Shown: piece by piece, positions 35,633-60,344 of the stretch
Layout: every line of letters begins with the position of its first letter
Position numbering within the stretch: the first letter of the stretch is position 1
From: an uncultured delta proteobacterium
Lineage (GTDB): Bacteria; Myxococcota_A; UBA9160; JAFDET01
Assembly (NCBI GenBank): GCA_947259215.1
Contig: CAMYLJ010000001.1
Location: 84,505-148,504, forward strand
Length of the DNA: 64,000 nucleotides
Direction: 5' to 3'
Program-made: the position numbers and the translations under genes
Notes under the pieces: generated by a model
Told to the model about the DNA's origin: nothing
The model's input: only the letters and a program-made list of their open reading frames with translations
Database searches by the model: none

Positions 35633-37252
35633 TCACCTCTGCGGGGCGCCGGCGAGTCCGGAGAGGAGGCGCAGGCCCCCGAAGCGCGGGCGCCGCGGGT
35701 GCAGCTCCAGCACGACCCGTTCCGCCTCGCCGATGCCCGCGCGCCGGCGCGCCTCCCGGAGCGCCTCCAGGGGCCCGCCCAGGGCGTCCACCAGCCCGAG
35801 TTCCCGGGCGCGCGCACCGCTCCAGACGCGCCCGCGCGCCGAGCGCTCGACCACGCCCGGATCGAGGCCGCGGCCCTCGGCCACGCGCTCGACGAAGCTC
35901 CGGTAGACCGCTTCCATCTCGTCGCGCACCACGGCGCGCTCGTCGGCGGTGAAGCCGCGCGAGTCGGACAGCAGGCCCGCCCGGGCGCCCCGCTCGACCC
36001 CGTCGCGGCCCACTCCGAGCCGCTCGTAGAGCCGCTCGAGATGGACCTTGCCTCCCACCACCCCGATCGAGCCCGTGATGCTGCTCTCCTCGGCCAGCAC
36101 CGCGTCGGCGGCGGCGGCCAGGTAGTAGCCGCCCGACGCGGCCACGTCACCCATGGAGACCACGACCGGCTTGTCGCGCTGCGCGACGCGCAGCGCCCGC
36201 CACAGCAGATCCGAGGCCAGGCTGTCGCCGCCCGGGCTCTCGATCCGCAGCACGATCCCGCGCACCCCGGCGTCGCGGCGCAGGCGCTCGAAGAGCTCGC
36301 GGAAGGAATCGCTGGCGATGCCGTAGCCCGCGCGCCCGCCGTGGATGGTCCCCGCCGCCACCACGTAGGCCAGCCGCGGCAGCTCGCCCAGCAGGCGGAA
36401 GCCCCCGTCGCGCGCGCGCAGCGTCCCGTAGAGCGCCGCGTCCACCAGGCGGATGCGGCGCGGCCCGGGACGCTCGTCGGGGGGCGCGAGCGCAACCTGC
36501 TCCAGGGCCTCCTCCAGCTCGTCCGGGTAGAGACAGGCGTCGATCAGCCCGGCCTCCAGCGCGGCCGGGGCGGTGTAGGGCCCGGCGTCGATGCGGTCGC
36601 GCACCTCGGCCGGTGTGAGCCCTCGCCCGCGCGCCAGGCCGTCGACCAGCGCGCCGTAGAGGTCGTCCAGCAGCGCCTCGCTCTGCTCGCGCTGCTCCGG
36701 GGACATGGAATCGCGCACGAAGGTCTCACCGGCCGTCTTGTAGCCGCCGACCCGCACCACGTCGGGCGTCACCCCGACCCGCTCCAACAACTCGCGCAGG
36801 AAGACGCCCTCGGCGCGCAGGCCCACCAGGAAGACCGAGCCGCTGGGCGGCAGCCAGATCCGGCTGGCCGCGCTCGCCACCAGCAGGTCCTCGGGCGCCA
36901 GCCGCTCGCCGTACGCCACCACCGGGATGCCGCGCTCGCGCAGCCGCTCGAGCGCGCGGCGCAGCGACATCACCTTGCTCCAGCCGCGCGGCGCCCCGGC
37001 CAGGCGCACCAGCACGCCCTCCACCTGCGGGTCCTCGGCCGCCGCGTACAGGGTCTGGAGCACGTCCAGCAGGCTGGTCGAGGGCTCGCGCCCGAAGGGC
37101 AGGCTCGGTAGGCGCTGCTCGGCCAGGGGCGGCGCCAATCGCAGCAGCAGCCAGAAGCCGCGTTCCCGGGGCAACGCCAGGCGGGCCCCGACGCGCCGGG
37201 CGGCCAGCGCCACGTCGTGGCCCAGGCGTCGCGCGAGATCGGCGACCGCCAC
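35633..37252 (-). CDS. sppA: Signal peptide peptidase SppA (67K type, two S49 domains)
   Basis: Trimmed to the in-frame GTG at 37252, which shares one base with the upstream TAG. Second S49 domain reads VVSMGDVAASGGYYLAAAAD...GSIGV. Confidence 0.8.
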   Translation of the reverse strand: MAVADLARRLGHDVALAARRVGARLALPRERGFWLLLRLAPPLAEQRLPSLPFGREPSTSLLDVLQTLYAAAEDPQVEGVLVRLAGAPRGWSKVMSLRRALERLRERGIPVVAYGERLAPEDLLVASAASRIWLPPSGSVFLVGLRAEGVFLRELLERVGVTPDVVRVGGYKTAGETFVRDSMSPEQREQSEALLDDLYGALVDGLARGRGLTPAEVRDRIDAGPYTAPAALEAGLIDACLYPDELEEALEQVALAPPDERPGPRRIRLVDAALYGTLRARDGGFRLLGELPRLAYVVAAGTIHGGRAGYGIASDSFRELFERLRRDAGVRGIVLRIESPGGDSLASDLLWRALRVAQRDKPVVVSMGDVAASGGYYLAAAADAVLAEESSITGSIGVVGGKVHLERLYERLGVGRDGVERGARAGLLSDSRGFTADERAVVRDEMEAVYRSFVERVAEGRGLDPGVVERSARGRVWSGARARELGLVDALGGPLEALREARRRAGIGEAERVVLELHPRRPRFGGLRLLSGLAGAPQR

Positions 37253-38877
37253 TAGCGCCAGCGCTTCGTGCGCCGCGACAGGTAGTCGACCATCAGGTAG
37301 GAGCCGAGCTGTCGCGGGTGGGTGAAGAAGGCGCGGCCCTTGTTGATCTGCGTCAGGCGCTCCACGAAGGAGACGAGCTCCGGCGAGTCGTCCAGCATGA
37401 AGGTGTTGATCGTGGCGCCGCGGCGCGTGACGCGGCGCACCTGCTTGAGGGTCTCCTCGGCGGCGCGCGGAGAGATGCCGCCGAAGCCCATGGGCCACTC
37501 CACGCGCAGCTCGCGGTCCACGAAGTAGGCCGTGGGCTGACCGTCCGTGATGACCAGGATCTGCGACTGGGGCGACGGGTGCTTCGCGATCAGGCGCTCG
37601 GCGACCATCAACCCCTCCTGGAGGTTGGTGAAGGGATCGCCCATGTTCCAGGTGGCCTCGGGCAGATCGCGGATCGAGAGCTCGACCGCCCGGGTGTAGA
37701 AGCCGACCACGAAGAAGTGGTCGCGCGGATAGCGGCTGCGGATCAGGTGATCCAGCGCCAGCGCCACCCGCTTGGCGGCGCCGAAGCGCCCGGCCCAGGA
37801 CATGGACCAGCTCATGTCGAGCAGCAGCACGGTCGTGGTCTGGGTCGTGTAGTCCATCTCGTGGACGCGGAAGTCCTCCACCTGCAATGGGATCGGCGTC
37901 TCCAGGGCGCGGCCGGGATTCGCGCGCGCCCGGCGCAGGACGCTCTCGAGCAGCGTGCGGACCACGGCCACGTCGCCGCCGTCGCCGAATTCCCAGGGTC
38001 GGGTCTCGTCGGGCCGCGGCAGGCCGACGCCGGTCCGGGCGGTCTCGTGGGCACCGGGACGCCCCTTGCGCAGGGCGCCGTACACCTGGGCCAGGGCGCT
38101 GGCGCCGAGGCGCCGGATGGCTTTGGGCGTCAGCTCCTCCGCGCCTTCGCGGAGATAGCCGGCCTGTTCGAGACGCGGCCTCAGGTCGCGCAGGAACACC
38201 AGGGAGCGCGCGGCACCCTCGTCCAGCAGCTCCTGCAGCGCCTCCGGCGAGATCCCCTCGAAGTTGCCCTCCGCCAGGTCGCGGCCCATCTGCTCCAGGG
38301 CCTCGATGCGCTGGCGGATCTCCTGGGCGGTCTCGTAGTCCGCCGCCTCCCCGCCCCGGAAGCGCTCGCCCTGCTCGCGCTGGAACTGCTCCAACGCCCG
38401 CAGGCGCTCGAGCTCCTCCAGCAGCTCGCGGTAGTCCGTCTCCGCCTCCTCGTCCTCGAAGGCGTGGTCCTGGAAGCGCTCGACGGCGTCGGCCAGATCC
38501 CCGGAGCCGTCGTGGCGCCGCTCCAGGAAGTCGTTCATGCGCTGCGACTCGTGCCCGTGGGCGTCGCGCAGGGCCGCCTGCTCGCGGTCCAGCAGCTCCT
38601 CCAGGCGCCGCCGCAGCACGTCCGTCGCCTGGGACAGGTCGTAGCGGTCGTAGAGGGACTGGGCCCCGTCGCGCAGCTCGCGCAGGAGCTCCTCGACACC
38701 CATCACCCGCATCTCCATCCCGCCCAGCTCGAAGCCCGTCCGGCGCATCCAGTCCAGGGCCTCGTCCAGCGACAGCCCCTCCATCAGCAGCTCGGAGAGC
38801 GCGTCGAGCGCCTCCTCGGCGTCGAGGGAGAACTCGGCGAGGGAGCCGTCCCAGCGGCTGTACCGGAAGACCTTCAC
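37252..38877 (-). CDS. vWA-domain protein (partner of the upstream AAA+ ATPase)
   Basis: GTG at 38877 overlaps the ATPase stop (GTGA). N-terminus VKVFRYSRWDGSLAEFSLDAEE..., then a long acidic helical region, then a C-terminal vWA domain with the MIDAS-like motif LLLDMSWSMS...ITDGQPT. Confidence 0.8.
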   Translation of the reverse strand: MKVFRYSRWDGSLAEFSLDAEEALDALSELLMEGLSLDEALDWMRRTGFELGGMEMRVMGVEELLRELRDGAQSLYDRYDLSQATDVLRRRLEELLDREQAALRDAHGHESQRMNDFLERRHDGSGDLADAVERFQDHAFEDEEAETDYRELLEELERLRALEQFQREQGERFRGGEAADYETAQEIRQRIEALEQMGRDLAEGNFEGISPEALQELLDEGAARSLVFLRDLRPRLEQAGYLREGAEELTPKAIRRLGASALAQVYGALRKGRPGAHETARTGVGLPRPDETRPWEFGDGGDVAVVRTLLESVLRRARANPGRALETPIPLQVEDFRVHEMDYTTQTTTVLLLDMSWSMSWAGRFGAAKRVALALDHLIRSRYPRDHFFVVGFYTRAVELSIRDLPEATWNMGDPFTNLQEGLMVAERLIAKHPSPQSQILVITDGQPTAYFVDRELRVEWPMGFGGISPRAAEETLKQVRRVTRRGATINTFMLDDSPELVSFVERLTQINKGRAFFTHPRQLGSYLMVDYLSRRTKRWR

Positions 38878-40286
38878 GGCTGCCCGTACACCGCGCGGTC
38901 GTCGCGCGCGGACTTGTTGAGGCGGTTCTCCAGGTGCAGGCCCTCCAGCAGGAACTCGATGGCGCTGGCGAGGTGGCCCGGGCTCGTGCCCCCGGCCAGG
39001 CGCGCCGCCGCCTCCCGCAGCCCGGGGATGGCGTCGAGGCCCTCCAGGTACTCGCGCGCCGGCATGTCGCCGGAGACCTCGACGTTCCAGCCCTGGTTGA
39101 ACGCCTCCACCACCGTGGCCAGGCCTTCTCCGAGGCCGAAGCCGTCGAAGACCTGCTTGACGGCGCGGCGGCGCAGCTCGTCGATCACGTCGCTCTCGCT
39201 CTTGTCCGCTCCGGCGTACTCCAGCTCGAGCTTGCCCGTGCTGGACGCCTCGAGCGCCGCCAGGTCCGAGATGCGCGGCACGGCCTCGGCCTCGCCGTGT
39301 CGCAGCGCCCGGCGTGCGGCGTTGGCGGCCAGGGTCTCGTAGTTGGCGATGGTCATGCGGACCGAGACACCCGAGGTCTGGTTCACGTCCGGGCTCTGAC
39401 GGGCCTGGAAGGTCATCTCCGCCACGATGTCCTGCATGAAGCCGGGCAGCGCAACCTCGACCCCGTCGATGCGGGGCAGCACGGCCTCCTGCCGCACGAT
39501 CGCCAGCTCGAGCTCGCGGGTCTCGGGGTAGTGGGTGCGGATCTGGGCCGCGTAGCGGTCCTTCAAGGGCGTGATGATGCGACCCCGGCTGGTGTAGTCC
39601 TCGGGATTGGCGCTGGCCACCACCAGCACGTCCAGCGGCAGCCGAACCCGGTAGCCCCTCACCTGGAAGTCGCGCTCCTCCAGCACGTTGAAGAGCGCGA
39701 CCTGCACCTTCTCCGTCAGGTCCGGCAGCTCGTTGATGCAGAAGATCCCGCGGTTCGTGCGCGGAAGCAGACCGAAATGGATCGTGCGCTCGTCGCCCAG
39801 GGTGCGCCCCTCGGCCACCTTGACCGGGTCCACGTCGCCGATCAGGTCGGCCACCGAGGTGTCGGGAGTCGCGAGCTTCTCGCCGTAGCGCTGGTCGCGG
39901 TGCACCCAGACCACCGGGGTCGCGTCTCCCTCCTCGGCCACCCGCCGCCGGGCGAAGGCGGACACGGGCGCCAGCGGGTCGTCGCAGATCTCGCTGCCCG
40001 CCACGGCGGGGACCCACTCGTCCAGCAGTCCCACCAGCGCGCGGATCAGGCGCGACTTCGCCTGACCGCGCTCGCCCAGGAAGATCAGGTCGTGGCCGCA
40101 CAGGAGCGCGTTCTCCAGCGCCGGAACCACGCTCTCGTCGTAGCCCAGGATGCCCTCGAACAAGGGCCGCCCGGCGCGCAGGGCCTCGAGCAGGTTTGCG
40201 CGCAGCTCCTCGCGCAGGCTGCGGGGCCCGACGCCCGAGGCGCGCAGGGCGCCGAGGTGGGTGTCTTCGGGGCGGGGGGCGGTCAT
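38874..40286 (-). CDS. AAA+ ATPase, Mg-chelatase subunit I-like (COG1239-like)
   Basis: ATG at 40286 is preceded by GGAGGA. Walker A-like GERGQAKS, Walker B-like FCINELPDL and VALFNVLEERDFQVRGY. Trimmed from the 735-aa track ORF. Confidence 0.8.
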   Translation of the reverse strand: MTAPRPEDTHLGALRASGVGPRSLREELRANLLEALRAGRPLFEGILGYDESVVPALENALLCGHDLIFLGERGQAKSRLIRALVGLLDEWVPAVAGSEICDDPLAPVSAFARRRVAEEGDATPVVWVHRDQRYGEKLATPDTSVADLIGDVDPVKVAEGRTLGDERTIHFGLLPRTNRGIFCINELPDLTEKVQVALFNVLEERDFQVRGYRVRLPLDVLVVASANPEDYTSRGRIITPLKDRYAAQIRTHYPETRELELAIVRQEAVLPRIDGVEVALPGFMQDIVAEMTFQARQSPDVNQTSGVSVRMTIANYETLAANAARRALRHGEAEAVPRISDLAALEASSTGKLELEYAGADKSESDVIDELRRRAVKQVFDGFGLGEGLATVVEAFNQGWNVEVSGDMPAREYLEGLDAIPGLREAAARLAGGTSPGHLASAIEFLLEGLHLENRLNKSARDDRAVYGQP

Positions 40287-40297
40287 GGGTCCTCCGC

Positions 40298-41107
40298 TCA
40301 ACGTTCGCCGTACAGCAGGCGGATCCGCTTCTGGATGATCTCGAGCTTGCCGCCGTCGCGCACCACCAGCCCCCGCGGAAGCGACTCGGCCCGGATGGCG
40401 GCGCGGGTGTTGGCGATGCGCTCGTCGGTCGCAGGGTGGCTCGAGAGCCAGCTCGGCCCTCCCGCGCCGCCCGTCTCCCGCCGCAACGTCTCGAAGAAGG
40501 TCACGAGGCCGTCCGGATCGTAGCCCGCACGGGGCAGCACCTCGACCGCGAACAGGTCGGCCTCGCGCTCCGCGTCCCGACCGTAGGAATTGAGGTAGGC
40601 GCTGCCCGCCAGCCCGCCGCCCAGACTGGCCGCCCGGGCCGCTGCGCCGCCGCCGACCAGCCCGGCGGTCAACACACCCAGCTGGTGCGCGATCCCGACG
40701 CCCCGGGAGCGGTTGTAGTTCTGCGCCACGTGCCGATTCGCCACGTGTCCGACCTCGTGGCCCATCACCCCCGCGAGCTCGCTCACGTTGCGGGACTGGA
40801 GGATCGTGCCCGTGTTCACGTAGATGTACCCGCCGGGCAGCGCGAAGGCGTTGATCGGCTCGGCGTCCACCACGTAGAAGCGGTAGGGGAAGGGCTGGTT
40901 GCCGGAAGCGTGCACGATGCGTCGCCCGATGTCGCGCACGTAGGCCACCACCCGCCCGTCCCGGACCAGCTTCACGTCGCGCCGGACCTGCTCGTTCACC
41001 TGCTCGCCGAGCGAGCGCTCTTCCGGAATGCTCAAGGTGCCGCAGGCCAGGACGCCCGCGGCCAGCAGCGCCGCAACCCACGCCGGCCTACCCCGCCCGC
41101 GGCGCAT
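40298..41107 (-). CDS. M48-family zinc metalloprotease, lipoprotein
   Basis: Lipobox LAAGVLAC. HEXXH motif (MGHEVGHV) plus a downstream E (EREAD). Confidence 0.85.
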   Translation of the reverse strand: MRRGRGRPAWVAALLAAGVLACGTLSIPEERSLGEQVNEQVRRDVKLVRDGRVVAYVRDIGRRIVHASGNQPFPYRFYVVDAEPINAFALPGGYIYVNTGTILQSRNVSELAGVMGHEVGHVANRHVAQNYNRSRGVGIAHQLGVLTAGLVGGGAAARAASLGGGLAGSAYLNSYGRDAEREADLFAVEVLPRAGYDPDGLVTFFETLRRETGGAGGPSWLSSHPATDERIANTRAAIRAESLPRGLVVRDGGKLEIIQKRIRLLYGER

Positions 41108-42287
41108 CCGCCTCTTCCGCCTTGGCGACGCTCTCCGTGACGTAGCGGATGATCGAGAGGACGGATCGGTCGAAGGACACGTTCTCTACGATCGGCACGC
41201 CGTGGGTTTCGGCGAGCTCGAGGATGTAGTCCTGGATGCGCAGGATCTCGGACAGGTGGCCCAGATACCGGTGCGGCGGCCGATCGGCGGCGCCCTCGCC
41301 CCGCCTGGCGAAGCGCGCGCGGAAGGCGTCCTCGTCGAAGGTGGCGACCACCAGGAAGATGACGTGGGCGCGGCCGGCGTAGGCCTCCAGACCGAGGCGT
41401 CCGGGCAGCAGGGAGATCCCGTCGAGAACCAGGCTGCTGTTCTCCTCGATGGCGCGATCGATCATGGCCTGGGCCCCCACCGAGATCACCGAGGCCTGGG
41501 CCGCGAAGGCCTCCACCACCGGGTCCGCGCCCGGCGTCGGCTCGAAGCCCTCCTGACGGTGCGCCTGGTAGGAGGACGAATGGATGGCTGGCATCAGCTC
41601 CGGCGACAGCATGATGCGCATCACTTGGCGGATGGCGTCCGTCGAGAGCACGCGGCCGATGCCCAGACGATGGGCCACCTCGAGCGCGAGAGAGGTCTTG
41701 CCCACGCCCGTGGCGCCGCCCAGCAGCAGGATCACGGGCCGGTCGGGATCCTGGAAACGCCGCCAGACCAGATAGCGTCTGGCGACGCGCTCGCCGGAGG
41801 CGCTGCGCAGCGCGTCGTAGACCAGCTTCCGCAGCGCGGACCGCTCGACCCGCCGCAGGCCGTCCCGCACCAGGCGCTCCTCGATCCGGCGCGCCACGTC
41901 GAACGCCTCGTTGGGCTCGAGCGCGGCGGCCAGCAGGGACTGGGACAGGATCCCCTTGGAGAAGGGCACCTCCTTGCCCCGCGCCACCACGGCGATGTCG
42001 GGCGGAAGCAGGGGTGCCGCGGGCTCGACGCTCAGCCCGGCGGCGGCCAGCACGTCGTCCACCACCTTGGTCAGCTCGAGCGGGGTCAGCACCTGCTGCT
42101 CGCGGATGCGCTCCCGCACCTCGTTGGCGGTCGCGTAGGCGTCTTCGAACGCCAGGCCGCGAGCCATCAGGGAGTGGACCAGGATGCCGCGCATGAAGGG
42201 CCGCCGGCCGCCGACATCCTCCACCTGGATGCGCGTCCGGGTCCCGGCCTTCTCGGGCCCACCGTCTCCGGCCGGTCGCTGCGCCAT
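41088..42287 (-). CDS. ATP-cone plus P-loop kinase, 2-phosphoglycerate kinase-like (COG2074-like)
   Basis: 399 aa. The N-terminal region has an ATP-cone flavour (PFMRGILVHSLMARGLAFEDAYATANEVRERI). P-loop GGATGVGKTS. Confidence 0.6.
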   Translation of the reverse strand: MAQRPAGDGGPEKAGTRTRIQVEDVGGRRPFMRGILVHSLMARGLAFEDAYATANEVRERIREQQVLTPLELTKVVDDVLAAAGLSVEPAAPLLPPDIAVVARGKEVPFSKGILSQSLLAAALEPNEAFDVARRIEERLVRDGLRRVERSALRKLVYDALRSASGERVARRYLVWRRFQDPDRPVILLLGGATGVGKTSLALEVAHRLGIGRVLSTDAIRQVMRIMLSPELMPAIHSSSYQAHRQEGFEPTPGADPVVEAFAAQASVISVGAQAMIDRAIEENSSLVLDGISLLPGRLGLEAYAGRAHVIFLVVATFDEDAFRARFARRGEGAADRPPHRYLGHLSEILRIQDYILELAETHGVPIVENVSFDRSVLSIIRYVTESVAKAEEADAPRAG

Positions 42288-42377
42288 GGGCGCACCCTAC
42301 CCTAGGGATTCGAGCGCGGCGACCGAGGACCCCCTGCAAGGCGCCTTCCGATCACGACATTTCCGCACGATTTTGGC

Positions 42378-42405
42378 TTGACTCCGAGCCCGGAACGAAT
42401 ATAAC
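42378..42405 (+). promoter_or_regulatory. Candidate sigma70 promoter of the merR-parA module
   Basis: TTGACT-N16-TATAAC lies in a locally AT-rich patch about 40 nt upstream of the merR ATG. Confidence 0.5.
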
Positions 42406-42442
42406 GTCGTTCTGCCGCTTCCGGCGGACAGGGAGGGCCTGG

Positions 42443-42949
42443 ATGCCCCAGTCATCGCAGGGCGAGTCCGGCTCTGCGGAGCGCTCGACGCAACGCGACC
42501 TCTTCCGCACGGGAGAAGTCGTCGAGGTCGTCGGCGTCTCGCGGCGACAGCTGCAGTACTGGGCCCAGACCGACCTCGTCCGTCCGTCGGCGCGCACAGG
42601 GGGGGGACACCACCGCTACACGTTCGAAGACCTCGTGGCCTTGAAGGCTGCGAAGCGTCTCATCGACGCCGGCGTCTCGGTCCAACGGATCCGCAAGAGC
42701 ATCGAGCAGCTGAGAGGGGTCCTACCGACCGTGCGTCGACCGCTGGCGGAGCTGGTGCTGGTGGCAACGGGTGACGTAGTTCTCGTGTTCCGGGAGGGCG
42801 CGGTCTTCGAGGCCGTGACCGGTCAGGAGTGGGTACTCGAGGTCGCGGAGTTCCAACGCGAAGTCGAGGCCTGGCGCCGGAACGTCCGCAACGAGCGCCG
42901 CGCACGCCCGGCCCGGTCCGGTTCCGCCCGATCCGAGCGCACGGCCTAA
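42443..42949 (+). CDS. MerR-family DNA-binding protein with a C-terminal extension
   Basis: The HTH reads FRTGEVVEVVGVSRRQLQYWAQTDLVRPS...GHHRYTFEDLVALKAAKRLIDAGVSVQRI. A beta-rich region and a basic tail follow. Confidence 0.8.
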   Translation: MPQSSQGESGSAERSTQRDLFRTGEVVEVVGVSRRQLQYWAQTDLVRPSARTGGGHHRYTFEDLVALKAAKRLIDAGVSVQRIRKSIEQLRGVLPTVRRPLAELVLVATGDVVLVFREGAVFEAVTGQEWVLEVAEFQREVEAWRRNVRNERRARPARSGSARSERTA

Positions 42950-43098
42950 CGCCGTCCGCAGGGCCCGGGATCTCGTGTCCGGGCCGCCTCGCTGGCGTCT
43001 GCCGGTCCCGATCGGGCTCGCACCCGATCCGGGGCGAGCCGCGCAACTCCACTGACCCGATGTCCGGTCAGCGGAAGCGCGGAGGGGGGAGATCGGCC

Positions 43099-44163
43099 AT
43101 GCGAAGCATCGCGATCGTCAATCAGAAGGGCGGGTGCGGAAAGACCACCACCGCCGTGAACCTGGCGGGAAGCCTGGCGCTCGACGGCGCTCAGGTCCTC
43201 GTCGTCGACATCGATCCCCAGGCGCACGCGACCTTGGCGCTGGGAATCGATCCCGAGGTCACGGAGGCCAACCTCTACGAGGTGCTGGCCGACGAGGAGG
43301 GGTCCGCGCTCGTCAACGAGATCCTGGTCGAGGTGGCCCCGGGGATCCATCTGGCGCCATCGGGCATCGTGCTCTCGGCGCTGGAGCAGAAGCTGGCCGC
43401 CGAGCGGGCGGAGGCCCGCACCGAGCGGCTGGCCGCGGCCCTGGCGCGCCTGGTCCGGCCCTACGATTACTGCCTGATCGACTGCCCACCGAACGTGGGC
43501 CTCCTGACCTTCAACGCCCTGCGCGCGGCCGGCGAGGTGATCGTGCCCCTGGAGACCAGCTACTTCGCCATCCACGGCGTGCAGAAGCTGCTCGAGACGA
43601 TCGCGCTGCTGTCGGAGCGCCTGGGTCACGAGCTGGAGGTGCGGATCCTGCCGACCCTCTACGACGGCCGCACCCGCTACGCCCGCGAGACCCTGGGCGA
43701 GATCCGCGAGCTCTTCCGGGACATGTGCTTCGACACGGTGATCCGCCAGAACGTGAAGCTGCGGGAGGCGGCCCGGCGCGGCGTCCCGGTGGGGCGCTAC
43801 GCGCCGTCGGCCAACGGGGCCCACGACTACGCGGCGCTCTCGCTGGAGATCGCCGCCGTGGCGCCGGCGGCGGACGAAGCGCTCGACAGCGCGGCCCGTC
43901 GCGTGGAGGTGCGCTTCCACGACCCCGCGGCGAGCGACGTGCGGATCGCCGGCGACTTCAACGGCTGGATTCCGGACAAGGGCGTCGAGACCCGCGTCGA
44001 GAGCGCGGGCAGCGATCGCGTGTGGACGAAGGTGCTGTCGCTGGCGCCCGGGACCTACCACTACCGCTACGTGGTCGACGGCCACTGGCGCGAGGACCCG
44101 GACAACCCGCGCTCCGAGGCGGGCCCCGTCGGCGAGCGCAACTCGGTCCTGGTGGTGCGCTAG
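43099..44163 (+). CDS. ParA/Soj-family ATPase fused to a C-terminal CBM48 / AMPK-beta-like glycan-binding domain
   Basis: ATG at 43099 is preceded by GGAGGGGGGA. Deviant Walker A KGGCGKTT, and DCPP. The C-terminal ~85 aa reads VEVRFHDPAASDVRIAGDFNGWIPDKG...WTKVLSLAPGTYHYRYVVDGHWREDPDNP. Confidence 0.8.
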   Translation: MRSIAIVNQKGGCGKTTTAVNLAGSLALDGAQVLVVDIDPQAHATLALGIDPEVTEANLYEVLADEEGSALVNEILVEVAPGIHLAPSGIVLSALEQKLAAERAEARTERLAAALARLVRPYDYCLIDCPPNVGLLTFNALRAAGEVIVPLETSYFAIHGVQKLLETIALLSERLGHELEVRILPTLYDGRTRYARETLGEIRELFRDMCFDTVIRQNVKLREAARRGVPVGRYAPSANGAHDYAALSLEIAAVAPAADEALDSAARRVEVRFHDPAASDVRIAGDFNGWIPDKGVETRVESAGSDRVWTKVLSLAPGTYHYRYVVDGHWREDPDNPRSEAGPVGERNSVLVVR

Positions 44164-44166
44164 CGC

Positions 44167-44928
44167 GTGGCCCGACGCCTCGTCGACGTCCTGCACCACT
44201 TCGATCCCGGGTTGGCCGAAGCGCCGGCGCCCGGGACGCCGGCGTCCGGCGAGCTGGAGCCCCAGGCGGCCGCCGGCGTGGCCGTGCCGCTCGAGGCCGG
44301 CGATCTGCTGCGGGCCGGCGCCCTGTGGAGCCTGGCTGTCGAAGTGGCCCGGAGCGGCGGCGCCGCCGAGGTGCTGGCGAGCGGGTGCGACGGCGCCTCG
44401 CCCTGGCCGCCGGCGGGCCCGGGCCCCCTCGGCGCCCACCTGACCCACCTGGAGGCGGGCGCGCCCGCGGACCTGGCCGCGGCGGTGGCCGCACGGGTCG
44501 CCGCCCTTTCGGGGCCGGGCCTGGTCTTCGGCTGCCTGCCGAGGACGTCGCTCGCCGCCGCCCTGACCGCGGGGCTGGGGCGTGCCCTGCTGCTGGTGCC
44601 CCCGGACCGGAGCGCCCTCGACGAGGCGGCCGACCTGGCGAGCGAGGCGCTGGGGGCGGTCCCGGACGCACGCCTGGGCGTCACCATCCACGGCGCCCGC
44701 AGTGTGGCCGAGGCGCGCCGTGCCTTCGAGGCCCTGGCCGCCCGCGTCGAAGGCCGCTGCGGCCGCCCGCTGGAGAGCTACGGACTCCTGGTCGACGACC
44801 TGGCCCTGTACCGCGGCATCCTGGAGCGCTGCCCCGTCGGCCTAGCGCGGCCCCAGTCGCTGGCGGCGCGCGCCCTCGCCGACGTGGCGCGCCTGCTCCT
44901 CGAACCGCCGCCCGAGACCGGCCCGTGA
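44167..44928 (+). CDS. Hypothetical protein, possibly a P-loop-less MinD/ParA-fold protein
   Basis: GTG start 3 nt after the parA stop, with coding-like high-GC3 codons. The C-terminal half (LLLVPPDRSALDEAADL...YGLLVDDLALYRGILERCPV...SLAARALADVARLL) resembles MinD/FlhG C-terminal regions. No Walker A seen. Confidence 0.5.
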   Translation: MARRLVDVLHHFDPGLAEAPAPGTPASGELEPQAAAGVAVPLEAGDLLRAGALWSLAVEVARSGGAAEVLASGCDGASPWPPAGPGPLGAHLTHLEAGAPADLAAAVAARVAALSGPGLVFGCLPRTSLAAALTAGLGRALLLVPPDRSALDEAADLASEALGAVPDARLGVTIHGARSVAEARRAFEALAARVEGRCGRPLESYGLLVDDLALYRGILERCPVGLARPQSLAARALADVARLLLEPPPETGP

Positions 44929-45479
44929 GCACGTTGCGCTCCGTCCCCTGGCCCCCGCGACCGGAGGTCCGCCTCGCGCTGCGCGACGCCCTGCCGCGGG
45001 CCGGGCGACCGCTGCGCATCCTGGCCGAGGACATCACCGGCCTGGAGCGCCCGCTGGACCTGGTGGCCGCCGACGGGGCCGGACGCGTCGTGCTGGTGCT
45101 GGTGGCCGGGAGCGCGTCCGAGAGCCTGGAGCTGGTGGCGGCCGGCCTGGCGGAGCGGGCCTGGCTCGCGCCCCGGCTCGGGGACTGGCGCAAGCTGGCC
45201 CCGGAGCTCGACCTGCGCCCGGGGCTCGGGATCGAGCTGCTGCTCGTGGCCCCGGAGTTCCCGCCTGCGGCCCAGGCCGCAGCCCGGGCCGCCGACCCCC
45301 GCAGCATCGCCCTGGCCTGCGCCCGCTTTGCGGCGCGCGGCCCCAGCGGCCGGCCGGAGATCCTGCTGGAGAGCCTCGGGGACACCGAGCCGCCGGTGGC
45401 AGAGACCCACGGCCGGCTCCGATCCGCCTTCCGCACGGGGCTCCGGGAAAGCGACCTGGCCGGCTCCGTCGCCAGCTGA
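44925..45479 (+). CDS. Hypothetical protein (weak PD-(D/E)XK / NucS-like flavour)
   Basis: GTG at 44925 overlaps the upstream stop (GTGA). The pattern LDLVAADGAGRVVLVLVAG is reminiscent of restriction-endonuclease-fold cores. Coding-like codon usage. Confidence 0.45.
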   Translation: MSTLRSVPWPPRPEVRLALRDALPRAGRPLRILAEDITGLERPLDLVAADGAGRVVLVLVAGSASESLELVAAGLAERAWLAPRLGDWRKLAPELDLRPGLGIELLLVAPEFPPAAQAAARAADPRSIALACARFAARGPSGRPEILLESLGDTEPPVAETHGRLRSAFRTGLRESDLAGSVAS

Positions 45480-45661
45480 CCAGCCACACGCAGCCTGATC
45501 CCCAGGGGGGCGCGGGACGCGCGGAAACACGGTCCCGCGGTGACAATTTTTGACACCTCCCCCCTTCCCGTGGGCACTTCCACAGCAGGGGTCCCCTGCC
45601 CTCGCACCAGCGCGGTGCCGGACCGGGGGCCGCGCTCGAGAACCTGGGACGAGGGCGACTC

Positions 45662-48182: not shown

Positions 48183-49247
48183 ATGCGCCGTTCGCTTCTC
48201 GGTCTCGCCCTGGCGGGACTCTGGTCACTCGCCTGCACGGGGACCCAATCTTCAGACGCGCCGGGTGCGCTCGACACCTCCGGCGACGCCGGCCGTGTCG
48301 TCGCGACGATCGACGACGATGCGATTACGATCGCCGAGCTCGACAGCTGGATCAAGGAGGACTGGTTCCGCGACCAGCTGGAGGACGAGAGCGCGGCCAA
48401 GGTGCACGAGTTCCGTTCGGAGCGCCTCAACCGCATGATCGACGAGCGCCTGCTCGAGGTCGAGGCACGCACGCGCGGCGTCGACCCCGATACGCTGCTC
48501 CAGGAGGCGGCCGACAGCGCCCCGGGCCCCAGCGAGGAGCAGGTCTCCGCCTTCTACACCGAGAACCAGGCACGCCTGCAGGGCAGCAGCCTGGAGCAGA
48601 TCGCTCCGCGCATCCGGGAGCATCTCCAGCAGCAGAACCAGCAGCAGGCGGTCGTGGCCTTCGTCGCGAGCCTGCGCGAGCGGTCGGCCGTGAAGGTGGA
48701 TTTCGAGCCGCCGCGGGTCGAAGTGGCCGCGATCGGGCCCGCCCTCGGTCCCGAGGCCGCGCCCGTGACGGTGGTGGAGTTCAGCGACTTCCAGTGCCCC
48801 TTCTGCTCGCGGGCTGCGCCCGTGCTGAAGCAGCTGCGGGAGCGCTATCCCGAGCAGGTGCGCGTGGTCTACCGCCACTTCCCGCTGGACTCGATCCATC
48901 CCCAGGCACGTCCCGCCGCCGAGGCGTCCATGTGCGCCGGCGAGCAGGATCGCTTCTGGGAGTTCCACGACCTGCTCTTCGCCAACCCCAAGGCGCTCTC
49001 CGACGAGCAGCTGGCGGGCTACGCGGAGCAGCTGGAGCTCGACGCCGAGGCGTTCCAGGCCTGTGTCGCGGAGGGCCGCTTCCGGGACGCCGTCCAGCTG
49101 GACCTCGACGACGGCCGCCGCGCCGGCGTCACGGGAACGCCGTCCTTCTTCGTGAACGGCCGCATGCTCGGCGGCGCGCTCCCGCTCGAGGAGTTCGTGA
49201 AGGTGATCGAGAGCGAGCTCCAGCGCGAAGGCGGCGCGGCGTCCTAG
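48183..49247 (+). CDS. DsbA-family thiol:disulfide oxidoreductase lipoprotein with an N-terminal SurA-N-like helical region
   Basis: Lipobox LWSLAC. Thioredoxin fold with FSDFQCPFCSR...GTPSFFVNG. Confidence 0.8.
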   Translation: MRRSLLGLALAGLWSLACTGTQSSDAPGALDTSGDAGRVVATIDDDAITIAELDSWIKEDWFRDQLEDESAAKVHEFRSERLNRMIDERLLEVEARTRGVDPDTLLQEAADSAPGPSEEQVSAFYTENQARLQGSSLEQIAPRIREHLQQQNQQQAVVAFVASLRERSAVKVDFEPPRVEVAAIGPALGPEAAPVTVVEFSDFQCPFCSRAAPVLKQLRERYPEQVRVVYRHFPLDSIHPQARPAAEASMCAGEQDRFWEFHDLLFANPKALSDEQLAGYAEQLELDAEAFQACVAEGRFRDAVQLDLDDGRRAGVTGTPSFFVNGRMLGGALPLEEFVKVIESELQREGGAAS

Positions 49248-50581
49248 CGGCCGGCCTCCATCCGCCCCACCAGCTCGTCGCGCCGGCGGATCATCGCGTC
49301 CTCGCTGTCCGCCTCCAGGTTGAGGCGCAGCACGGGCTCGGTGTTGGACGGCCGCAGGTTGAACCACCAGTCCGGGTAGCGCACGAGCAGCCCGTCGAGA
49401 TGGCTGATCTCGGCGCCGGCGTGCTCCGACTCGATCGCCGCCAGCAGGCCGGGGATGTCCTCGACCCGCCGCGAGATCTCGCCGCTGGCCCAGTAGCGGC
49501 GCAGCGGCGCGGCCAGCTCGGACAGCGGCTTTCCCGCGTCGGCCAGCACGTCGAGCATGGCCACCAGGGCGGCGAGCGCGTCGTCCGCCACCAGGGTGGG
49601 CGAGAAGCGGAAGTAGAAGTGGCCGGAGAGCTCGCCGCCGAACACGGCTCCCGTCTCGCGCATGCGCGCCTTGAAGAGCGAGTGACCGACCCGGCACATC
49701 TCGGCGACGCCGCCCGCGGCCTCCACCTCTTCCGCGGTGACCCGACTCGAACGCGGGTCGTAGAGCACGAGGCCGCCCGGCTCCCGCGCCAGCCGCGGTC
49801 GCGCCAGCAGCGCGGTCACCAGGTCCGACGCCACCGGCTCGCCGCAGTCGTCGACGAAGATCGCCCGATCGGCGTCCCCGTCGAACGCCACGCCGAAGTC
49901 CGCGCCCACCCGGCGCACCGCCTGCACCAGGTCCTCCAGGTTCTCGCGCTTCAGGGGATCGGCATCGTGATTGGGAAACGTGCCGTCGGGCTCGAAGTAG
50001 AGGCGCTCGACCTCCAGGGGCAGCGCCTCCAGCAGCGGCTCGAGCCCTACGGCGGCCATGCCGTTGCCGCAGTCGAACGCCACGCGCAGCTTCGGCCGCC
50101 CGGCGCCGACGGCGAGCAGGTGATCGCGGTAGGCGAGTCGAAGGTCCTCGCAGCGGTGGCCGCCCGGCGGGTCCGACGCGGGGCCGGGATCCGGAGCGGT
50201 CGCCAGCCGCTCGATCTCCGCCAGCCCGGTCTCGCCGCCGACGGGAATCGCGTGCTCGCGGCAGATCTTGAAGCCGTTGTAGCGGGCCGGGTTGTGGGAG
50301 GCGGTCACCATGATCCCGCCGCCGAGTCCCAGGCGCTCGACCGCGAAGTAGACCATGGGCGTGGTGCAGAGCCCTAGATCCACCACGTCCACGCCCTCCT
50401 CGCGGATTCCCCGCATCAGGGCGTCGCACAGCTCGGGAGAGTGGCTGCGCGCGTCGCGCCCGACCGCCAGGGCGCGCACCCCCAGATGGCGGGCGCTCGC
50501 GCGCCCGATGCGGTGTGCGGTCGTCGCGTCCAGCTGCCCGGGCACTTCGCCGCGGATGTCGTAGGCCTTGAAGATCGACAT
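49244..50581 (-). CDS. Phosphomannomutase/phosphoglucomutase
   Basis: Trimmed to ATG at 50581 (MSIFKAYDIRG). Active-site TASHNP and FDGDADR. Confidence 0.9.
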   Translation of the reverse strand: MSIFKAYDIRGEVPGQLDATTAHRIGRASARHLGVRALAVGRDARSHSPELCDALMRGIREEGVDVVDLGLCTTPMVYFAVERLGLGGGIMVTASHNPARYNGFKICREHAIPVGGETGLAEIERLATAPDPGPASDPPGGHRCEDLRLAYRDHLLAVGAGRPKLRVAFDCGNGMAAVGLEPLLEALPLEVERLYFEPDGTFPNHDADPLKRENLEDLVQAVRRVGADFGVAFDGDADRAIFVDDCGEPVASDLVTALLARPRLAREPGGLVLYDPRSSRVTAEEVEAAGGVAEMCRVGHSLFKARMRETGAVFGGELSGHFYFRFSPTLVADDALAALVAMLDVLADAGKPLSELAAPLRRYWASGEISRRVEDIPGLLAAIESEHAGAEISHLDGLLVRYPDWWFNLRPSNTEPVLRLNLEADSEDAMIRRRDELVGRMEAGR

Positions 50582-50695
50582 GGGCCCGGCATGGTATCCG
50601 CACTGCCTGCACACCGCTGGGGCGGGTCGGCTTGACCCGGGGGTCCGGGACCGGCACTGTTCTGGCACCTGCGGAGACCCGCTGGAGGCGACGCC

Positions 50696-52067: not shown

Positions 52068-52224
52068 CCGGCTCGCCCCTCCGGACCGCGGCGGCGGCGC
52101 CGCCGCAAGCGCCCCTCACCGGTGTGCTAGTGTCGCCAAAACCGGTGCACTCTCGGACGTTTCGGCCACGCCGGGGTGTCGCTTGAGGGCCCGCGGCCCC
52201 CACCCCGAACCCAGAGGAGCCCCC

Positions 52225-58460: not shown

Positions 58461-58618
58461 GCGAAGAATCTCGCGCCCCGGTCCACGCCAGATGTAGTGG
58501 TGCGAAGTCACCACGAACCCAACATCTTGGGTGAAAAACCCATCCCACCAAAAAAAGTGCGTGCGGGCGGGAATTTATGTTGCCGGTTGCCGCTCGGCTG
58601 ATGTAAAAGAGGTTTCAG

Positions 58619-58645
58619 GTGGGATGAAGTGGGATCAAGTGGGAT
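58619..58645 (+). promoter_or_regulatory. Probable MraZ operator: three direct GTGGGAT repeats with 10-nt periodicity
   Basis: GTGGGATgaaGTGGGATcaaGTGGGAT. Related or inverted copies lie at 58542-48, 58650-56 and 58675-86. A candidate promoter TTGCCG-N16-TGTAAA sits at 58580-58607, with an A7 tract at 58550-56. Confidence 0.7.
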
Positions 58646-58691
58646 GCAGATCCCATCACCGACGCCACCGAGGGTTGGGATCCCATCAACG

Positions 58692-59387: not shown

Positions 59388-60340
<953 letters not shown>

Positions 60341-60344
<4 letters not shown>

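Follow-up and report, generated by a model that had tools for sequence, protein, structure and literature searches.

A four-gene operon in the 64,000-nucleotide stretch of DNA that we analyzed (hereafter the window) encodes a ParA-type ATPase whose C-terminal module is, by sequence, a bona fide AMPK-β-type CBM48 with the residues on which AMPK depends to bind glycogen. Taken with the structural models of the neighboring proteins, the predicted products point to an undescribed machine that would organize or sense sugar-storage granules. As to function, we tentatively infer a ParA/partner-peptide positioning system in which the ATPase would bind cytoplasmic α-glucan directly. Granule positioning or segregation, the function originally predicted for this locus, is still a plausible hypothesis.

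Organization and conservation of the operon

Direct reading of the sequence identified four co-directional ORFs between 42443 and 45479 (Table 1). parA-CBM and gene 3 are 3 nt apart, and gene 3 runs into gene 4 with a GTGA overlap; this junction also overlaps in most of 80 relatives. Third-position GC is high in every ORF (merR, 0.83; parA-CBM, 0.95; gene 3, 0.93; gene 4, 0.95; window GC 73%), and we therefore consider all four to be coding. The gene calls on a 254,725-bp NCBI contig include the same four proteins with identical start codons, so that sequence and gene calls both bear out the predicted arrangement.

Table 1. Coordinates of the operon and its features in the window.
Feature	Position	Strand	Length or residues	Basis or remark
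Promoter region	42355..42405	+		direct sequence reading
CGACATTTCC upstream motif	42355-42364	+		promoter region element
TTTTGGC	42371-42377	+		promoter region element
-35 TTGACT	42378-42383	+		followed by 16-nt spacer
-10-like TATAAC	42400-42405	+		promoter region element
merR (MerR-family HTH protein)	42443-42949	+	168 aa	ORF call; Pfam MerR_1 1.7e-16, 60.5 bits
merR-parA intergenic region	42950..43098	+		repeat search
parA-CBM	43099-44163	+	354 aa	ATG start
ParA/Soj-type ATPase domain	43099..43860	+	1-254	Pfam AAA_31 2.7e-49, CbiA 9e-22
Deviant Walker A KGGCGKTT	43126-43149	+	10-17	sequence reading
Ala/Pro/Glu-rich linker	43861..43896	+	~255-266	variable alignment columns
AMPK-β-type CBM48, plus stop codon	43897..44163	+	267-354	Pfam
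gene 3	44167-44928	+	253 aa	GTG start
Gene 3 N-terminal conserved peptide	44167..44208	+	1-14	conservation and pLDDT
Gene 3 body, MinD/FlhG-like fold	44272..44928	+	36-245	AlphaFold, Foldseek
gene 4	44925-45479	+	184 aa	GTG start
Gene 4 core, NucS/EndoMS-like PD-(D/E)xK fold	44925..45377	+	1-151	AlphaFold, Foldseek
Gene 4 C-terminal motif (A/G)-F-R-(T/S)-G-L-R-(D/E), variable tail, stop	45426..45479	+		alignment
Weak terminator-like hairpin CGCGGGAC...GUCCCGCG, then GUGACAAUUUUUG	45512..45551	+		RNA fold

The promoter proposed upstream of merR, TTGACT-N16-TATAAC, is present, and its -35 and upstream motifs are kept in 61 of 71 related loci (CGACAAWTYC-N7-9-TTTTGGS-TTGACT-N17-TAnnnT). A consensus promoter scan missed it, since there is no final T in the -10 hexamer. 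The untranslated gap between merR and parA-CBM, 16-344 nt long among relatives, contains two adjoining imperfect palindromes found by repeat search (43015-43040 and 43048-43075), and within it the parA-CBM ATG is preceded by a G-rich ribosome-binding site; the stability of the gap's RNA fold was not significant against shuffles (z = -1.9). Beyond gene 4, a terminator scan found none at the operon end and the hairpin at 45512..45551 was not significant against shuffles (z = -0.8); we infer that this region is probably the end of the operon and the beginning of the next gene's promoter (TTGACA).

The predicted co-occurrence of the four genes was recovered in the 80 best-matching species-level genomes, all of them uncultured and labelled mostly Myxococcota or Deltaproteobacteria. 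ParA-CBM adjoins gene 3 in 80/80, the complete set of four with its gene order is kept in 67/80, and gene 4 is missing in 3/80. The operon is single-copy, with conserved flanking genes, and sits in the core chromosome alongside ffh, plsB, rlmN and the dcw cluster, a housekeeping context that is the same in distant relatives. The 69-83% identity of ParA across species suggests that the locus is vertically inherited under strong constraint. We found no glycogen-metabolism gene in the 64-kb window, with the exception of a PGM/PMM gene 4 kb downstream.

The first gene encodes a MerR-family protein, as its Pfam match confirms, with an HTH at residues 21-89, a conserved, unassigned C-terminal domain reaching approximately residue 145, and then a basic tail that varies (conservation profile of 70 orthologues). 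Its nearest solved structures are GlnR/TnrA, CarH and RacA, with the match confined to the HTH. The original prediction of a nucleoid-side role for this protein was not supported: the gene is truly missing in 8 of the 80 loci, all of which keep ParA-CBM and gene 3; an untranslated gap separates it from parA-CBM, in contrast to the tight coupling of parA-CBM, gene 3 and gene 4; and ParA itself keeps Soj-type residues for non-specific DNA binding. Because of these eight loci, we regard MerR as accessory rather than as a nucleoid anchor; it is probably the operon's transcriptional regulator. The eight loci also speak against DNA partition, in which MerR would be a centromere-binding protein (an analogue of RacA or of type Ib ParB) and ParA-CBM the motor that segregates a chromosomal locus or an integrated element. 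We consider this very unlikely. While merR and parA-CBM adjoin in 69/80 loci, a conserved motif lies upstream of merR, and the HTH weakly resembles that of RacA (NCBIfam, PDB), this resemblance does not exceed the likeness to GlnR/TnrA or CarH, and it is limited to the HTH; the repeat search found no array of centromere-like sites, the locus is single-copy and core-chromosomal, and the CBM would be left unexplained.

A ParA-type ATPase with a predicted glycan-binding domain

The ATPase domain of ParA-CBM is closest among solved structures to ParA 8ray (1e-44), Thermus thermophilus Soj (4e-42) and Helicobacter pylori Soj (5e-40), and it carries the predicted deviant Walker A near its N-terminus. 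In an alignment of 26 homologues, K10, K15, D37, D128, R191, R196, R216 and K220 do not vary, and conservation of D39 is at least 90%. When mapped onto H. pylori Soj, whose residues for DNA binding and catalysis have been described (PMC6393308), the catalytic D41 and D130 correspond to D39 and D128, K199 and K230 correspond to the invariant R196 and K220, and K227 corresponds to Q217, which adjoins the invariant R216. Judged by this alignment, the deviant Walker A of ParA-CBM is intact, its catalytic aspartates are in place, and the basic patch for non-specific DNA binding is largely kept. In these features, including the signature lysine, it resembles the ATPase of Soj/ParA-Spo0J/ParB systems. 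Unlike ParABS, however, the operon has no ParB, ParB/Srx domain or parS-like array (Pfam and repeat search), its ATPase bears a C-terminal CBM48, and the partner would be a P-loop-less MinD-fold protein.

The ATPase domain is joined to the C-terminal module by a poorly conserved linker that is 12-35 residues long in relatives. The proposal that this module is a CBM48 was upheld by HMM searches, with matches above cut-off to both AMPK1_CBM (residues 277-353, 5.1e-11, 43.1 bits; cut-off 26.8) and CBM_48 (23.1 bits; cut-off 22.4). It thus belongs to the same Pfam family as the β-subunit CBM of AMPK/SNF1/SnRK1, although its carrier here is a bacterial ParA ATPase and not a kinase scaffold. Alignment to AMPK β1/β2 CBM structures pairs W290 with W100, R323 with K126 (a Lys to Arg difference), W330 with W133, and G345 with G147, so that the tryptophans, basic residue and glycine at the glycogen-binding positions are kept. 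All four are invariant in 121 homologues. AMPK β1 no longer binds glycogen when it carries W100G or K126Q, and it binds glycogen more weakly with W133L or G147R (PMC6274970). The domain was present in all of the more than 120 ParA homologues recovered (69-98% identity), and, beyond the fusion, its closest relatives are tandem CBM48 arrays and α-glucan enzymes of GH13 and GH57. Our literature searches found neither a ParA linked to CBM48 or glycogen nor a precedent for a polysaccharide granule as ParA cargo.

Mean column identity in the CBM is 77%, compared with 69% for the whole ParA-CBM protein, and conservation of the CBM matches that of the ATPase domain. Because this identity exceeds what sugar binding alone would need, it hints at protein contacts. 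It could also mean that a CBM48-like E-set β-sandwich was recruited for protein-protein or other ligand binding, in which case the system would be an ordinary orphan ParA with an unusual C-terminal adaptor domain, and a non-glycan cargo would be positioned through genes 3 and 4. The very high conservation over the whole CBM surface, the neighborhood free of glycogen genes, and the partner-like layout of gene 3 (N-terminal tag, linker, cargo-binding body) are consistent with this explanation. We judge it unlikely, given that every residue whose mutation abolishes or weakens glycogen binding by AMPK β1 is invariant here and that the domain's nearest outside relatives belong to α-glucan enzymes.

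The gene 3 and gene 4 proteins

An HMM search of gene 3 for the expected CbiA/ParA fold gave no Pfam or NCBIfam match, but its AlphaFold model (pLDDT 87.6) recovered that fold without a P-loop. Foldseek placed FlhG first (4rz2/4rz3, E 1.5e-10, TM 0.66-0.70), followed by MinD, FleN, NifH and Soj, with E-values of 1.5e-10 to 1e-7 and TM of 0.65-0.71 against MinD/FlhG/FleN. The likeness to MinD/FlhG that had been read from the sequence therefore stands, although it extends over the whole fold instead of the C-terminal half only; the C-terminal helices resemble the C-terminal region of MinD/ParA. Sequence-profile comparison of gene 3 with the neighboring ParA showed no significant similarity (E 0.17). 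Unlike MinD, FlhG and FleN, gene 3 has no Walker A in either its sequence or its family alignment: the consensus G-x-R-D-V-V-R-A-A stands at the position of Q-K-G-G-C-G-K-T-T, which puts D-V-V-R in the glycine-rich loop. Because the P-loop is replaced, sequence and model identify gene 3 as a pseudo-ATPase in which a canonical P-loop is impossible. In further contrast to MinD, it has no visible C-terminal amphipathic membrane-targeting helix and carries an extra N-terminal tag.

This N-terminal peptide is the most conserved feature of gene 3 and survives in degenerate copies (L056, L074). Its family consensus is M-P/A-R-x-L-G-D-V-L-H-Y-F-L-P, with R3, L5, D7, V8 and P14 at least 90% conserved, and a disordered linker of variable length follows it; pLDDT is <55 over residues 1-30. 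The peptide is in the same register as the N-terminus of Bacillus subtilis Spo0J (MAKGLGKGINALF), in that a basic residue and one variable position lead into Leu-Gly and hydrophobic residues come next. Gene 3, however, has Asp where ParB has a critical Arg/Lys after the Leu-Gly pair, and by this comparison its peptide is ParB-like but not ParB-identical. A role for K3 and K7 of the Spo0J N-terminus has been described (PMC11229316), McdA-McdB-type partners have a short, charged, disordered N-terminal tag (PMC10241942), and ParA/MinD partners generally act through such a charged, disordered N-terminus (PMC10241942; PMC11229316). By analogy, the gene 3 peptide is a candidate tag for ParA interaction and ATPase stimulation. 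Since a ParB-like peptide is its most conserved part and persists in degenerate copies, gene 3 is a better candidate than MerR for the ParA partner.

Gene 4, whose sequence had suggested a weak nuclease-fold flavor, now has a stronger link to this fold. Its model (pLDDT 87.0) best matches the C-terminal nuclease domain of NucS/EndoMS (2vld, E 1.4e-4; 5gke, E 1.4e-3; probability 1.0; TM 0.40-0.48). In a 45-sequence alignment, E35 and D45 are conserved, with D45 an acidic residue in the second core strand. A conserved lysine is absent throughout this alignment and the (D/E)xK triad is therefore incomplete, unlike that of NucS; the protein is probably non-catalytic. It also differs from NucS in having no N-terminal DNA-binding domain and in its extra C-terminal F-R-T-G-L motif, in which F169, R170 and L173 do not vary and conservation of G172 is at least 90%; a disordered linker precedes the motif, and pLDDT is 44-63 over residues 151-184. 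Conservation of both ORFs, as predicted, is seen in their 120 (gene 3) and 44 (gene 4) homologues. Some defense systems combine a MerR HTH with a P-loop ATPase and a PD-(D/E)xK fold, and generic PADLOC matches were obtained to the HTH (mad1, 9.6e-8) and to the P-loop region. Nevertheless, it is highly improbable that the operon is a mobile or defense cassette built of ATPase, nuclease-fold protein and HTH regulator, as neither gene 3 nor gene 4 is matched in PADLOC or PHROG, the nuclease lysine is missing, the housekeeping context recurs in distant relatives, and ParA identity across species points to vertical inheritance.

Possible positioning or sensing of α-glucan

McdA-McdB, ParC-ParP, PpfA-TlpT, FlhG and PomXYZ share the logic that we propose, a nucleoid-bound ParA-type ATPase with an N-terminally tagged partner. 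In Myxococcus, PomX stimulates PomZ through an N-terminal peptide. Cargo binding in these systems resides in the partner, whereas here a recognized cargo-binding module, the CBM48, forms part of the ATPase protein. The cargo of a canonical ParA system bears the stimulator of the ATPase and not the ATPase, and permanent attachment of a cargo to ParA is at odds with the standard Brownian-ratchet scheme, which counts against positioning. This problem would be avoided if the CBM instead reported the glycogen store as part of a switch, with glycogen acting as signal rather than cargo by sequestering ParA or allosterically modulating its ATPase, while the ATPase, gene 3 and gene 4 positioned or regulated something else, for instance a protein complex, a region of the chromosome or the division site. 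Such a switch is possible, if rather unlikely. The CBM is of the AMPK-β type, and AMPK is inhibited by glycogen bound to this module (PMC6274970; see also PMC2642990); conservation beyond the sugar-binding residues suggests extra protein contacts, and gene 3 and gene 4 have no recognizable glycan-related feature. On the other hand, the operon shows no visible regulatory target, and the variable, flexible-looking linker would suit a tether better than an allosteric module.

We therefore retain, tentatively, the positioning system, which would be a chromosomal, vertically inherited module of the ParA/MinD type with cargo binding built into the ATPase. An ATP-bound ParA dimer would sit on the nucleoid while its two tethered CBMs grip cytoplasmic α-glucan (glycogen) particles; the gene 3 peptide, like the tags of ParB, McdB and PomX, would bind ParA and lead to ATP hydrolysis and release. 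Gene 4 and the pseudo-ATPase body of gene 3 may jointly form a regulatory or adaptor part, and MerR would control transcription of the operon. PhaM, a passive DNA- and granule-binding protein, ties PHB granules to the nucleoid without a ParA. The concept of a storage inclusion tied to the nucleoid for equal inheritance would be the same here, but the link would come from an ATP-cycling ParA, whose repeated binding and release would distribute glycogen granules, or partition them, along the nucleoid.

Organization and regulation of the four-gene operon

The operon comprises merR, parA-CBM, gene 3 and gene 4 (Table), with a spacing of 3 nt between parA-CBM and gene 3 and a GTGA stop/start overlap between gene 3 and gene 4. 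Third-position GC was 0.83 for merR, 0.95 for parA-CBM, 0.93 for gene 3 and 0.95 for gene 4, in a window with a GC content of 73%, and the switches in a frame plot fell exactly on the predicted junctions of the four ORFs. The identical four proteins, with identical start codons, are annotated as genes on a 254,725-bp NCBI contig.

Table. Features of the operon and its surroundings (positions in the window)
Feature	Position	Strand	Remarks
MoxR-like AAA ATPase gene and VWA-domain gene	37252-40400	-	Upstream of M48 peptidase gene
ATP-cone and P-loop kinase-like gene	41088-42287	-	2-phosphoglycerate-kinase-like architecture; divergent, directly upstream of operon
CGACAAWTYC-N7-9-TTTTGGS	42355-42377		Candidate operator or UP-like element
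-35 hexamer, TTGACT	42378-42383		
-10 hexamer, TATAAC	42400-42405		
merR	42443-42949	+	ORF, 168 aa
Two neighbouring imperfect palindromes	43015-43040 and 43048-43075		merR-parA spacer; common core CCCGAT(G)(T)CCGG
parA-CBM	43099-44163	+	ORF, 354 aa
Gene 3	44167-44928	+	ORF, 253 aa, GTG start
Gene 4	44925-45479	+	ORF, 184 aa, GTG start
GACAATTTTTGACA	45541-45554		Ahead of next gene; resembles motif upstream of -35
PGM/PMM gene	49244-50620		
Two ArsA/Get3-like P-loop ATPase ORFs	51613-54395	+	Overlapping frames; ~7 kb downstream; Pfam ArsA_ATPase (62.9 and 89.7 bits), CbiA and ParA
dcw cluster (mraZ, rsmH, ftsI, murE)	58602-63998	+	Starts ~13 kb downstream of operon; no functional link implied

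The original prediction had placed a promoter ahead of merR, and both hexamers, with a spacer of 16 nt, can be read in the sequence. A promoter and terminator consensus scan returned no match; it passes over this site because its rule demands a T at the final -10 position. We rejected this miss as an argument against the promoter, as phylogenetic footprinting revealed that the -35 hexamer and an upstream element are kept: the arrangement CGACAAWTYC, 7-9 nt, TTTTGGS, TTGACT, ~17 nt, TAnnnT precedes merR in 61 of 71 related loci. This footprint identifies the region as a conserved promoter that has an upstream element. The CGACAAWTYC/TTTTGGS motif of the window and of these 61 loci lies directly upstream of the -35 hexamer, and in several relatives it is palindromic (GCGACAA-N3-5-TTGTCGC); we regard it as a candidate operator, possibly for MerR, or as an UP-like element.

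The merR product contains an N-terminal winged helix-turn-helix (HTH) at residues 21-89 (Pfam MerR_1, 60.5 bits, cut-off 21.6; MerR, 30.1 bits, cut-off 28.2), then a conserved segment to about residue 145 that has no family assignment and a basic, variable tail. Its closest structures were GlnR/TnrA, CarH and RacA, which matched in the HTH alone. The over-long spacer of MerR-type promoters (19-20 bp, with a palindromic operator) was not found in the promoter of merR itself, where the spacer is 16-17 nt and the conserved motifs sit upstream of the -35 hexamer. In the spacer between merR and parA, the case for a structured RNA or an attenuator was rejected as not significant (z = -1.9; 5 of 200 shuffles were equally stable), and a hairpin 3' of gene 4, considered as a terminator (z = -0.8), was retained as a weak annotation only.

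A ParA ATPase fused to a carbohydrate-binding module

The deviant Walker A motif originally noted in the ParA ORF, KGGCGKTT, which includes the N-terminal signature lysine, occupies residues 10-17 of the parA-CBM product, of which K10, G11, G12, G14, K15, T16 and T17 are invariant among 26 homologues. Residues 1-231 matched the Pfam families AAA_31 (2.7e-49, 167.9 bits, cut-off 27) and CbiA (9e-22, 77.8 bits, cut-off 25.4), and the product also matched MipZ (48.7 bits, cut-off 20.7), while no equivalog cut-off was reached in NCBIfam. The structures closest to the ATPase domain were those of chromosomal Soj/ParA proteins (8ray, 1e-44; T. thermophilus Soj, 4e-42; H. pylori Soj, 5e-40).

In H. 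pylori Soj, residues D41 and D130 are catalytic, and K199, K227, K230 and K247 form a patch that binds DNA non-specifically (PMC6393308). Alignment to 8jmj placed the catalytic aspartates at D39 (at least 90% conserved among the 26 homologues) and D128 (invariant) of the parA-CBM product. Within the patch, K199 and K230 correspond to R196 and K220, both invariant, K227 corresponds to Q217, which adjoins an invariant R216, and K247 corresponds to S237, a non-basic residue like the Thr found at this position in Caulobacter ParA. The basic patch appears to be largely, but not fully, retained. On the evidence of the motif, the HMM matches and the aspartates, we assign this ATPase to the ParA family, and because the Walker A motif, the catalytic aspartates and most of the patch residues are present, the protein looks like a functional, nucleoid-binding ParA.

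An Ala/Pro/Glu-rich linker of variable length (12-35 residues) connects the ATPase to the C-terminal domain, which had been recognized by eye as CBM48. An HMM search confirmed this, as residues 277-353 matched Pfam AMPK1_CBM (5.1e-11, 43.1 bits, cut-off 26.8) and the C-terminus matched CBM_48 at 23.1 bits, barely over the cut-off of 22.4; in a phmmer search of the PDB, the carbohydrate-binding modules (CBMs) of AMPK beta1 and beta2 were matched (E 4e-6 to 3e-4). Alignment to the crystal structures of these CBMs equated W290 with W100, R323 with K126 (a conservative change relative to beta1), W330 with W133, G345 with G147 and N348 with N150, which we take to count among the sugar-contact residues of AMPK beta1. 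Across 121 homologues, conservation is 98% or higher for W290, R323, W330 and G345, and 70% or higher for N348. In AMPK beta1, glycogen binding is abolished by W100G and K126Q and weakened by W133L and G147R (PMC6274970).

A profile built from only this CBM was also run against 1.84 billion representative proteins; the closest relatives outside the fusion were tandem AMPK1_CBM/CBM48 arrays, a GH13 alpha-amylase and a GH57 enzyme. The few single-CBM proteins with other N-termini were rejected as alternative architectures, as these look like chimeric or frameshifted calls. Four public proteins with the same CBM subtype (P0355, P0363, P0404 and P0334) include fragments from the C-terminus of ParA, or N-termini unrelated to it, and look like assembly chimeras or frameshifts. 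In these proteins and in locus L084 (1947-3028) the CBM is joined to an unrelated N-terminus or parA and CBM are split, and an automated survey could mistake such calls for alternative domain architectures.

The products of gene 3 and gene 4

The gene 3 product has no match in Pfam or NCBIfam, ATPase families included, and its 120 homologues are 38-56% identical. It had originally been likened to the C-terminal half of MinD/FlhG. The relation held but the extent did not, as an AlphaFold model (42-sequence input, pLDDT 87.6, pTM 0.84) shows a complete MinD-type fold at residues 36-245. The best Foldseek match to this model was FlhG (4rz2/4rz3, E 1.5e-10, TM 0.66-0.70), followed by MinD (1hyq, 1.9e-9) and FleN (9e-9), with TM 0.61-0.71 over the matches to these three proteins, and then by NifH and Soj; the structure is closer to FlhG/MinD than to Soj. 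The Walker A motif is missing, as had been predicted: the family consensus at this position, A-V-P-x-G-x-R-D-V-V-R-A-A, has no GK[ST], and hhalign set it in register with N-Q-K-G-G-C-G-K-T-T of ParA. Because this defining motif is missing, we classify the product from its sequence as a pseudo-ATPase rather than as a MinD/FlhG protein, of which it is a fold relative only. A recent duplication of the neighbouring ParA was rejected as its source, as the profile similarity between the two was not significant (hhalign E 0.17). By inspection, we saw no C-terminal amphipathic membrane-targeting helix; the final helix (residues 232-245) is part of the fold, and the tail beyond it is short, variable and Pro/Glu/Ala-rich.

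The best-conserved element of the gene 3 product is residues 1-14 (consensus M-P/A-R-x-L-G-D-V-L-H-Y-F-L-P), with conservation of 90% or more at R3, L5, D7, V8 and P14; it is followed by a length-variable linker predicted to be disordered. This peptide lies in the same register as MAKGLGKGINALF, which we take to be the N-terminus of B. subtilis Spo0J: R3 replaces K3, L5 and G6 are identical, and an Asp stands in place of K7. Partners of ParA/MinD ATPases generally work via a charged, disordered N-terminal peptide (PMC10241942), and in ParB proteins the N-terminal Lys or Arg residues that surround a conserved Leu-Gly have a stimulating effect on Soj, the residues concerned being K3 and K7 of B. 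subtilis Spo0J, R10 of T. thermophilus Spo0J and L7 and R9 of H. pylori ParB (PMC11229316). Because the gene 3 peptide is in register with Spo0J and follows this general partner-peptide layout, we propose, by analogy, that the gene 3 product is the partner of ParA-CBM.

The gene 4 product likewise has no family match in Pfam or NCBIfam, and its 44 homologues are 40-91% identical. Its suspected nuclease-fold character was borne out by a structural model (pLDDT 87.0), which matches the C-terminal PD-(D/E)xK domain of NucS/EndoMS (Foldseek 2vld, E 1.4e-4; 5gke, 1.4e-3; probability 1.0) with modest TM-scores of 0.40-0.48; the next matches were SfsA, R2 endonuclease and MspJI. An alignment of 45 sequences shows conservation of E35 and D45 but contains no invariant or almost invariant lysine, and its third core strand is V-V-L-V-L-V. 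The catalytic triad D...(D/E)xK is incomplete because no lysine is conserved; the protein is a fold relative only of the PD-(D/E)xK nucleases and is probably non-catalytic. Past a disordered linker, its C-terminus carries an F-R-x-G-L motif, with F169, R170 and L173 invariant, which is a second candidate interaction tag.

Conservation, genomic context and proposed function

The CBM is present in all of at least 120 best ParA homologues (69-98% identity, full coverage), and the named hosts among the best 120 are Myxococcota, Myxococcales or Deltaproteobacteria MAGs. A scan for the patterns VRIAGDFN and YRYVVDGxW, with each GTDB species represented by a single genome, yielded 333 confirmed stretches, and the best 80 of these, all spanning the ParA C-terminus and the CBM, were used for synteny. 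All 80 loci come from uncultured MAGs, mostly labelled Myxococcota/Deltaproteobacteria, with a few evidently unreliable labels. In keeping with the original grouping of the genes, all four occur in the same order and on the same strand in 67 of these best 80 loci; gene 3 directly follows parA-CBM in every one of the 80, and gene 3 and gene 4 overlap in most. Gene 4 is truly absent from three of the 80 and merR from eight, where at least 960 nt of upstream sequence is available and a divergent ATP-cone gene stands directly upstream. The most distant gene 3 homologue found, the public protein P0240, belongs to the same operon, with parA and CBM separated there by a frameshift. One MAG, OFTM73, seemed to hold two ParA-CBM loci (L005 and L018), but these are not paralogues; contig ends and overlapping content point to one locus split by the assembly.

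Identity is far higher in ParA-CBM (69-83%) than in gene 3 (38-56%) or gene 4 (~40-63%, two closest relatives excluded). As flanking genes are conserved too, gene order partly reflects relatedness, and the informative signals are translational coupling and differential retention: ParA-CBM is retained throughout the loci examined, as is the gene 3 peptide, while MerR and gene 4 are sometimes lost. Loci L056, L074 and L058 (MAGs OFTM60, OFTM159 and TMED72) represent a sub-lineage from which both merR and gene 4 have been lost. The gene 3 body of L056 and L074 has decayed almost past recognition (HMM E 2e-8 and 6e-11), parA-CBM is intact, and the intact N-terminal peptide, ARKLGDVLHFFL or ARKLGDVLHLML, still lies directly 3' of it. 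These three loci form a series of natural reductions from which the minimal system could be defined.

This pattern bears on the idea of a DNA partition system centred on MerR, which we consider improbable given that MerR is dispensable in eight lineages among the best 80 loci. The operon also differs from ParABS, which relies on ParB or another centromere-binding protein and on repeated centromere sites. No ParB-type domain was detected in the four operon proteins or in neighbouring genes, and a search of 42250-43120 for centromere-like repeats gave only short two-copy matches typical of chance; the operon is not ParABS because it has neither ParB nor a centromere array.

The surrounding window is core chromosome, with ctpA-like, ccmF, plsB, nhaA, ffh, SLT/LysM transglycosylase, rlmN and trmB genes. 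Upstream, the window and relatives carry genes for an ATP-cone P-loop kinase-like protein and an M48 peptidase, and other relatives a MoxR/VWA pair or an S49 peptidase, TrmB and RlmN; the downstream flank encodes an ECF sigma factor, a hydrolase, DsbA, EI24, PGM/PMM, TatA and the ArsA-like ATPase pair. A counterpart of the MoxR/VWA pair in a related genome (locus L001, 2961-6016) is Rv0959-like in precomputed annotation. The ATP-cone gene was directly upstream in every relative inspected there and abuts parA-CBM where merR is missing; it could share the regulation of the operon or be merely syntenic. The adjacent ArsA/Get3-like pair is also conserved (L001, 16433-17089; locus L003, 15866-17077), and with gene 3 counted, the neighbourhood therefore has three further members of the ParA/ArsA superfamily besides the operon ParA. 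Gene 3 and gene 4 matched no PADLOC (defence-system) or PHROG (phage-family) entry, which argues against a defence system or prophage, and we consider a defence cassette very unlikely. The only glycogen-metabolism candidate within the 64-kb window was PGM/PMM, an enzyme that serves many other pathways.

Domain identities, retained functional residues, the loss of both P-loop and nuclease lysine, conserved terminal motifs and synteny were all computed here; every protein-protein and protein-ligand contact in the following model, and its cellular outcome, we infer. In the best-supported reading, the ATP-bound ParA-CBM dimer would bind the nucleoid non-specifically, its two tethered CBMs would hold cytoplasmic alpha-glucan particles, and the gene 3 N-terminal peptide would bind the ATPase and trigger hydrolysis and release. 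An adaptor or regulatory part would consist of the gene 3 body together with gene 4, and MerR would control transcription of the operon. The main difficulty is that the ATPase itself, not the stimulator, would ride on the cargo, whereas in canonical ParA systems the cargo carries the stimulator. For this reason, two other explanations of the CBM deserve substantial weight. The first is that it acts as a glycogen sensor, as in AMPK, which we consider doubtful but plausible; next in probability is that it serves as a protein-binding module for a non-glycan cargo.

We class the operon as a putative ParA/partner-peptide positioning module whose new features are the fusion of a cargo-binding domain to the motor and a pseudo-ATPase as presumed partner. 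ParA/MinD ATPases are a general bacterial device for placing chromosomes, plasmids, carboxysomes, chemoreceptor arrays, flagella and division sites. To our knowledge, a separate adaptor joins ATPase to cargo in all characterized cases, no polysaccharide storage granule is positioned in this way, and the distribution of glycogen between bacterial daughter cells is essentially unstudied. In the part of the journal literature that was searched, no paper links ParA to CBM48, to any glycogen-binding domain or to glycogen granules, and broader searches yielded irrelevant papers only. We tentatively suggest, as a possibility short of an even chance, that the operon encodes the first ATP-driven system dedicated to the positioning or partition of bacterial glycogen (alpha-glucan) granules. 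Its logic would be inverted: ParA would hold the cargo through its fused CBM48, the stimulating peptide, ParB-like in kind, would come from a P-loop-less MinD-fold pseudo-ATPase, and a dead nuclease-fold protein would be the remaining member of the complex.

The anatomy of the operon is clear and widely conserved, and its function, in a host lineage that is uncultured, we infer. The operon, which is conserved across 80 or more species-level genomes of this lineage, is a directly testable candidate that combines an ATPase carrying a recognizable glycogen-binding domain with one candidate stimulating peptide and a pair of small accessory proteins. If the CBM is a sensor and not a tether, the system would be a bacterial parallel to AMPK glycogen sensing. 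If the positioning reading is true, a polysaccharide inclusion would join the cargos of ParA and a pseudo-ATPase its partners, a ParA-family pseudo-ATPase would be seen to act as a regulator, and the fusion would be a clean natural case of a "luggage tag" attached to the motor, useful for synthetic positioning systems.
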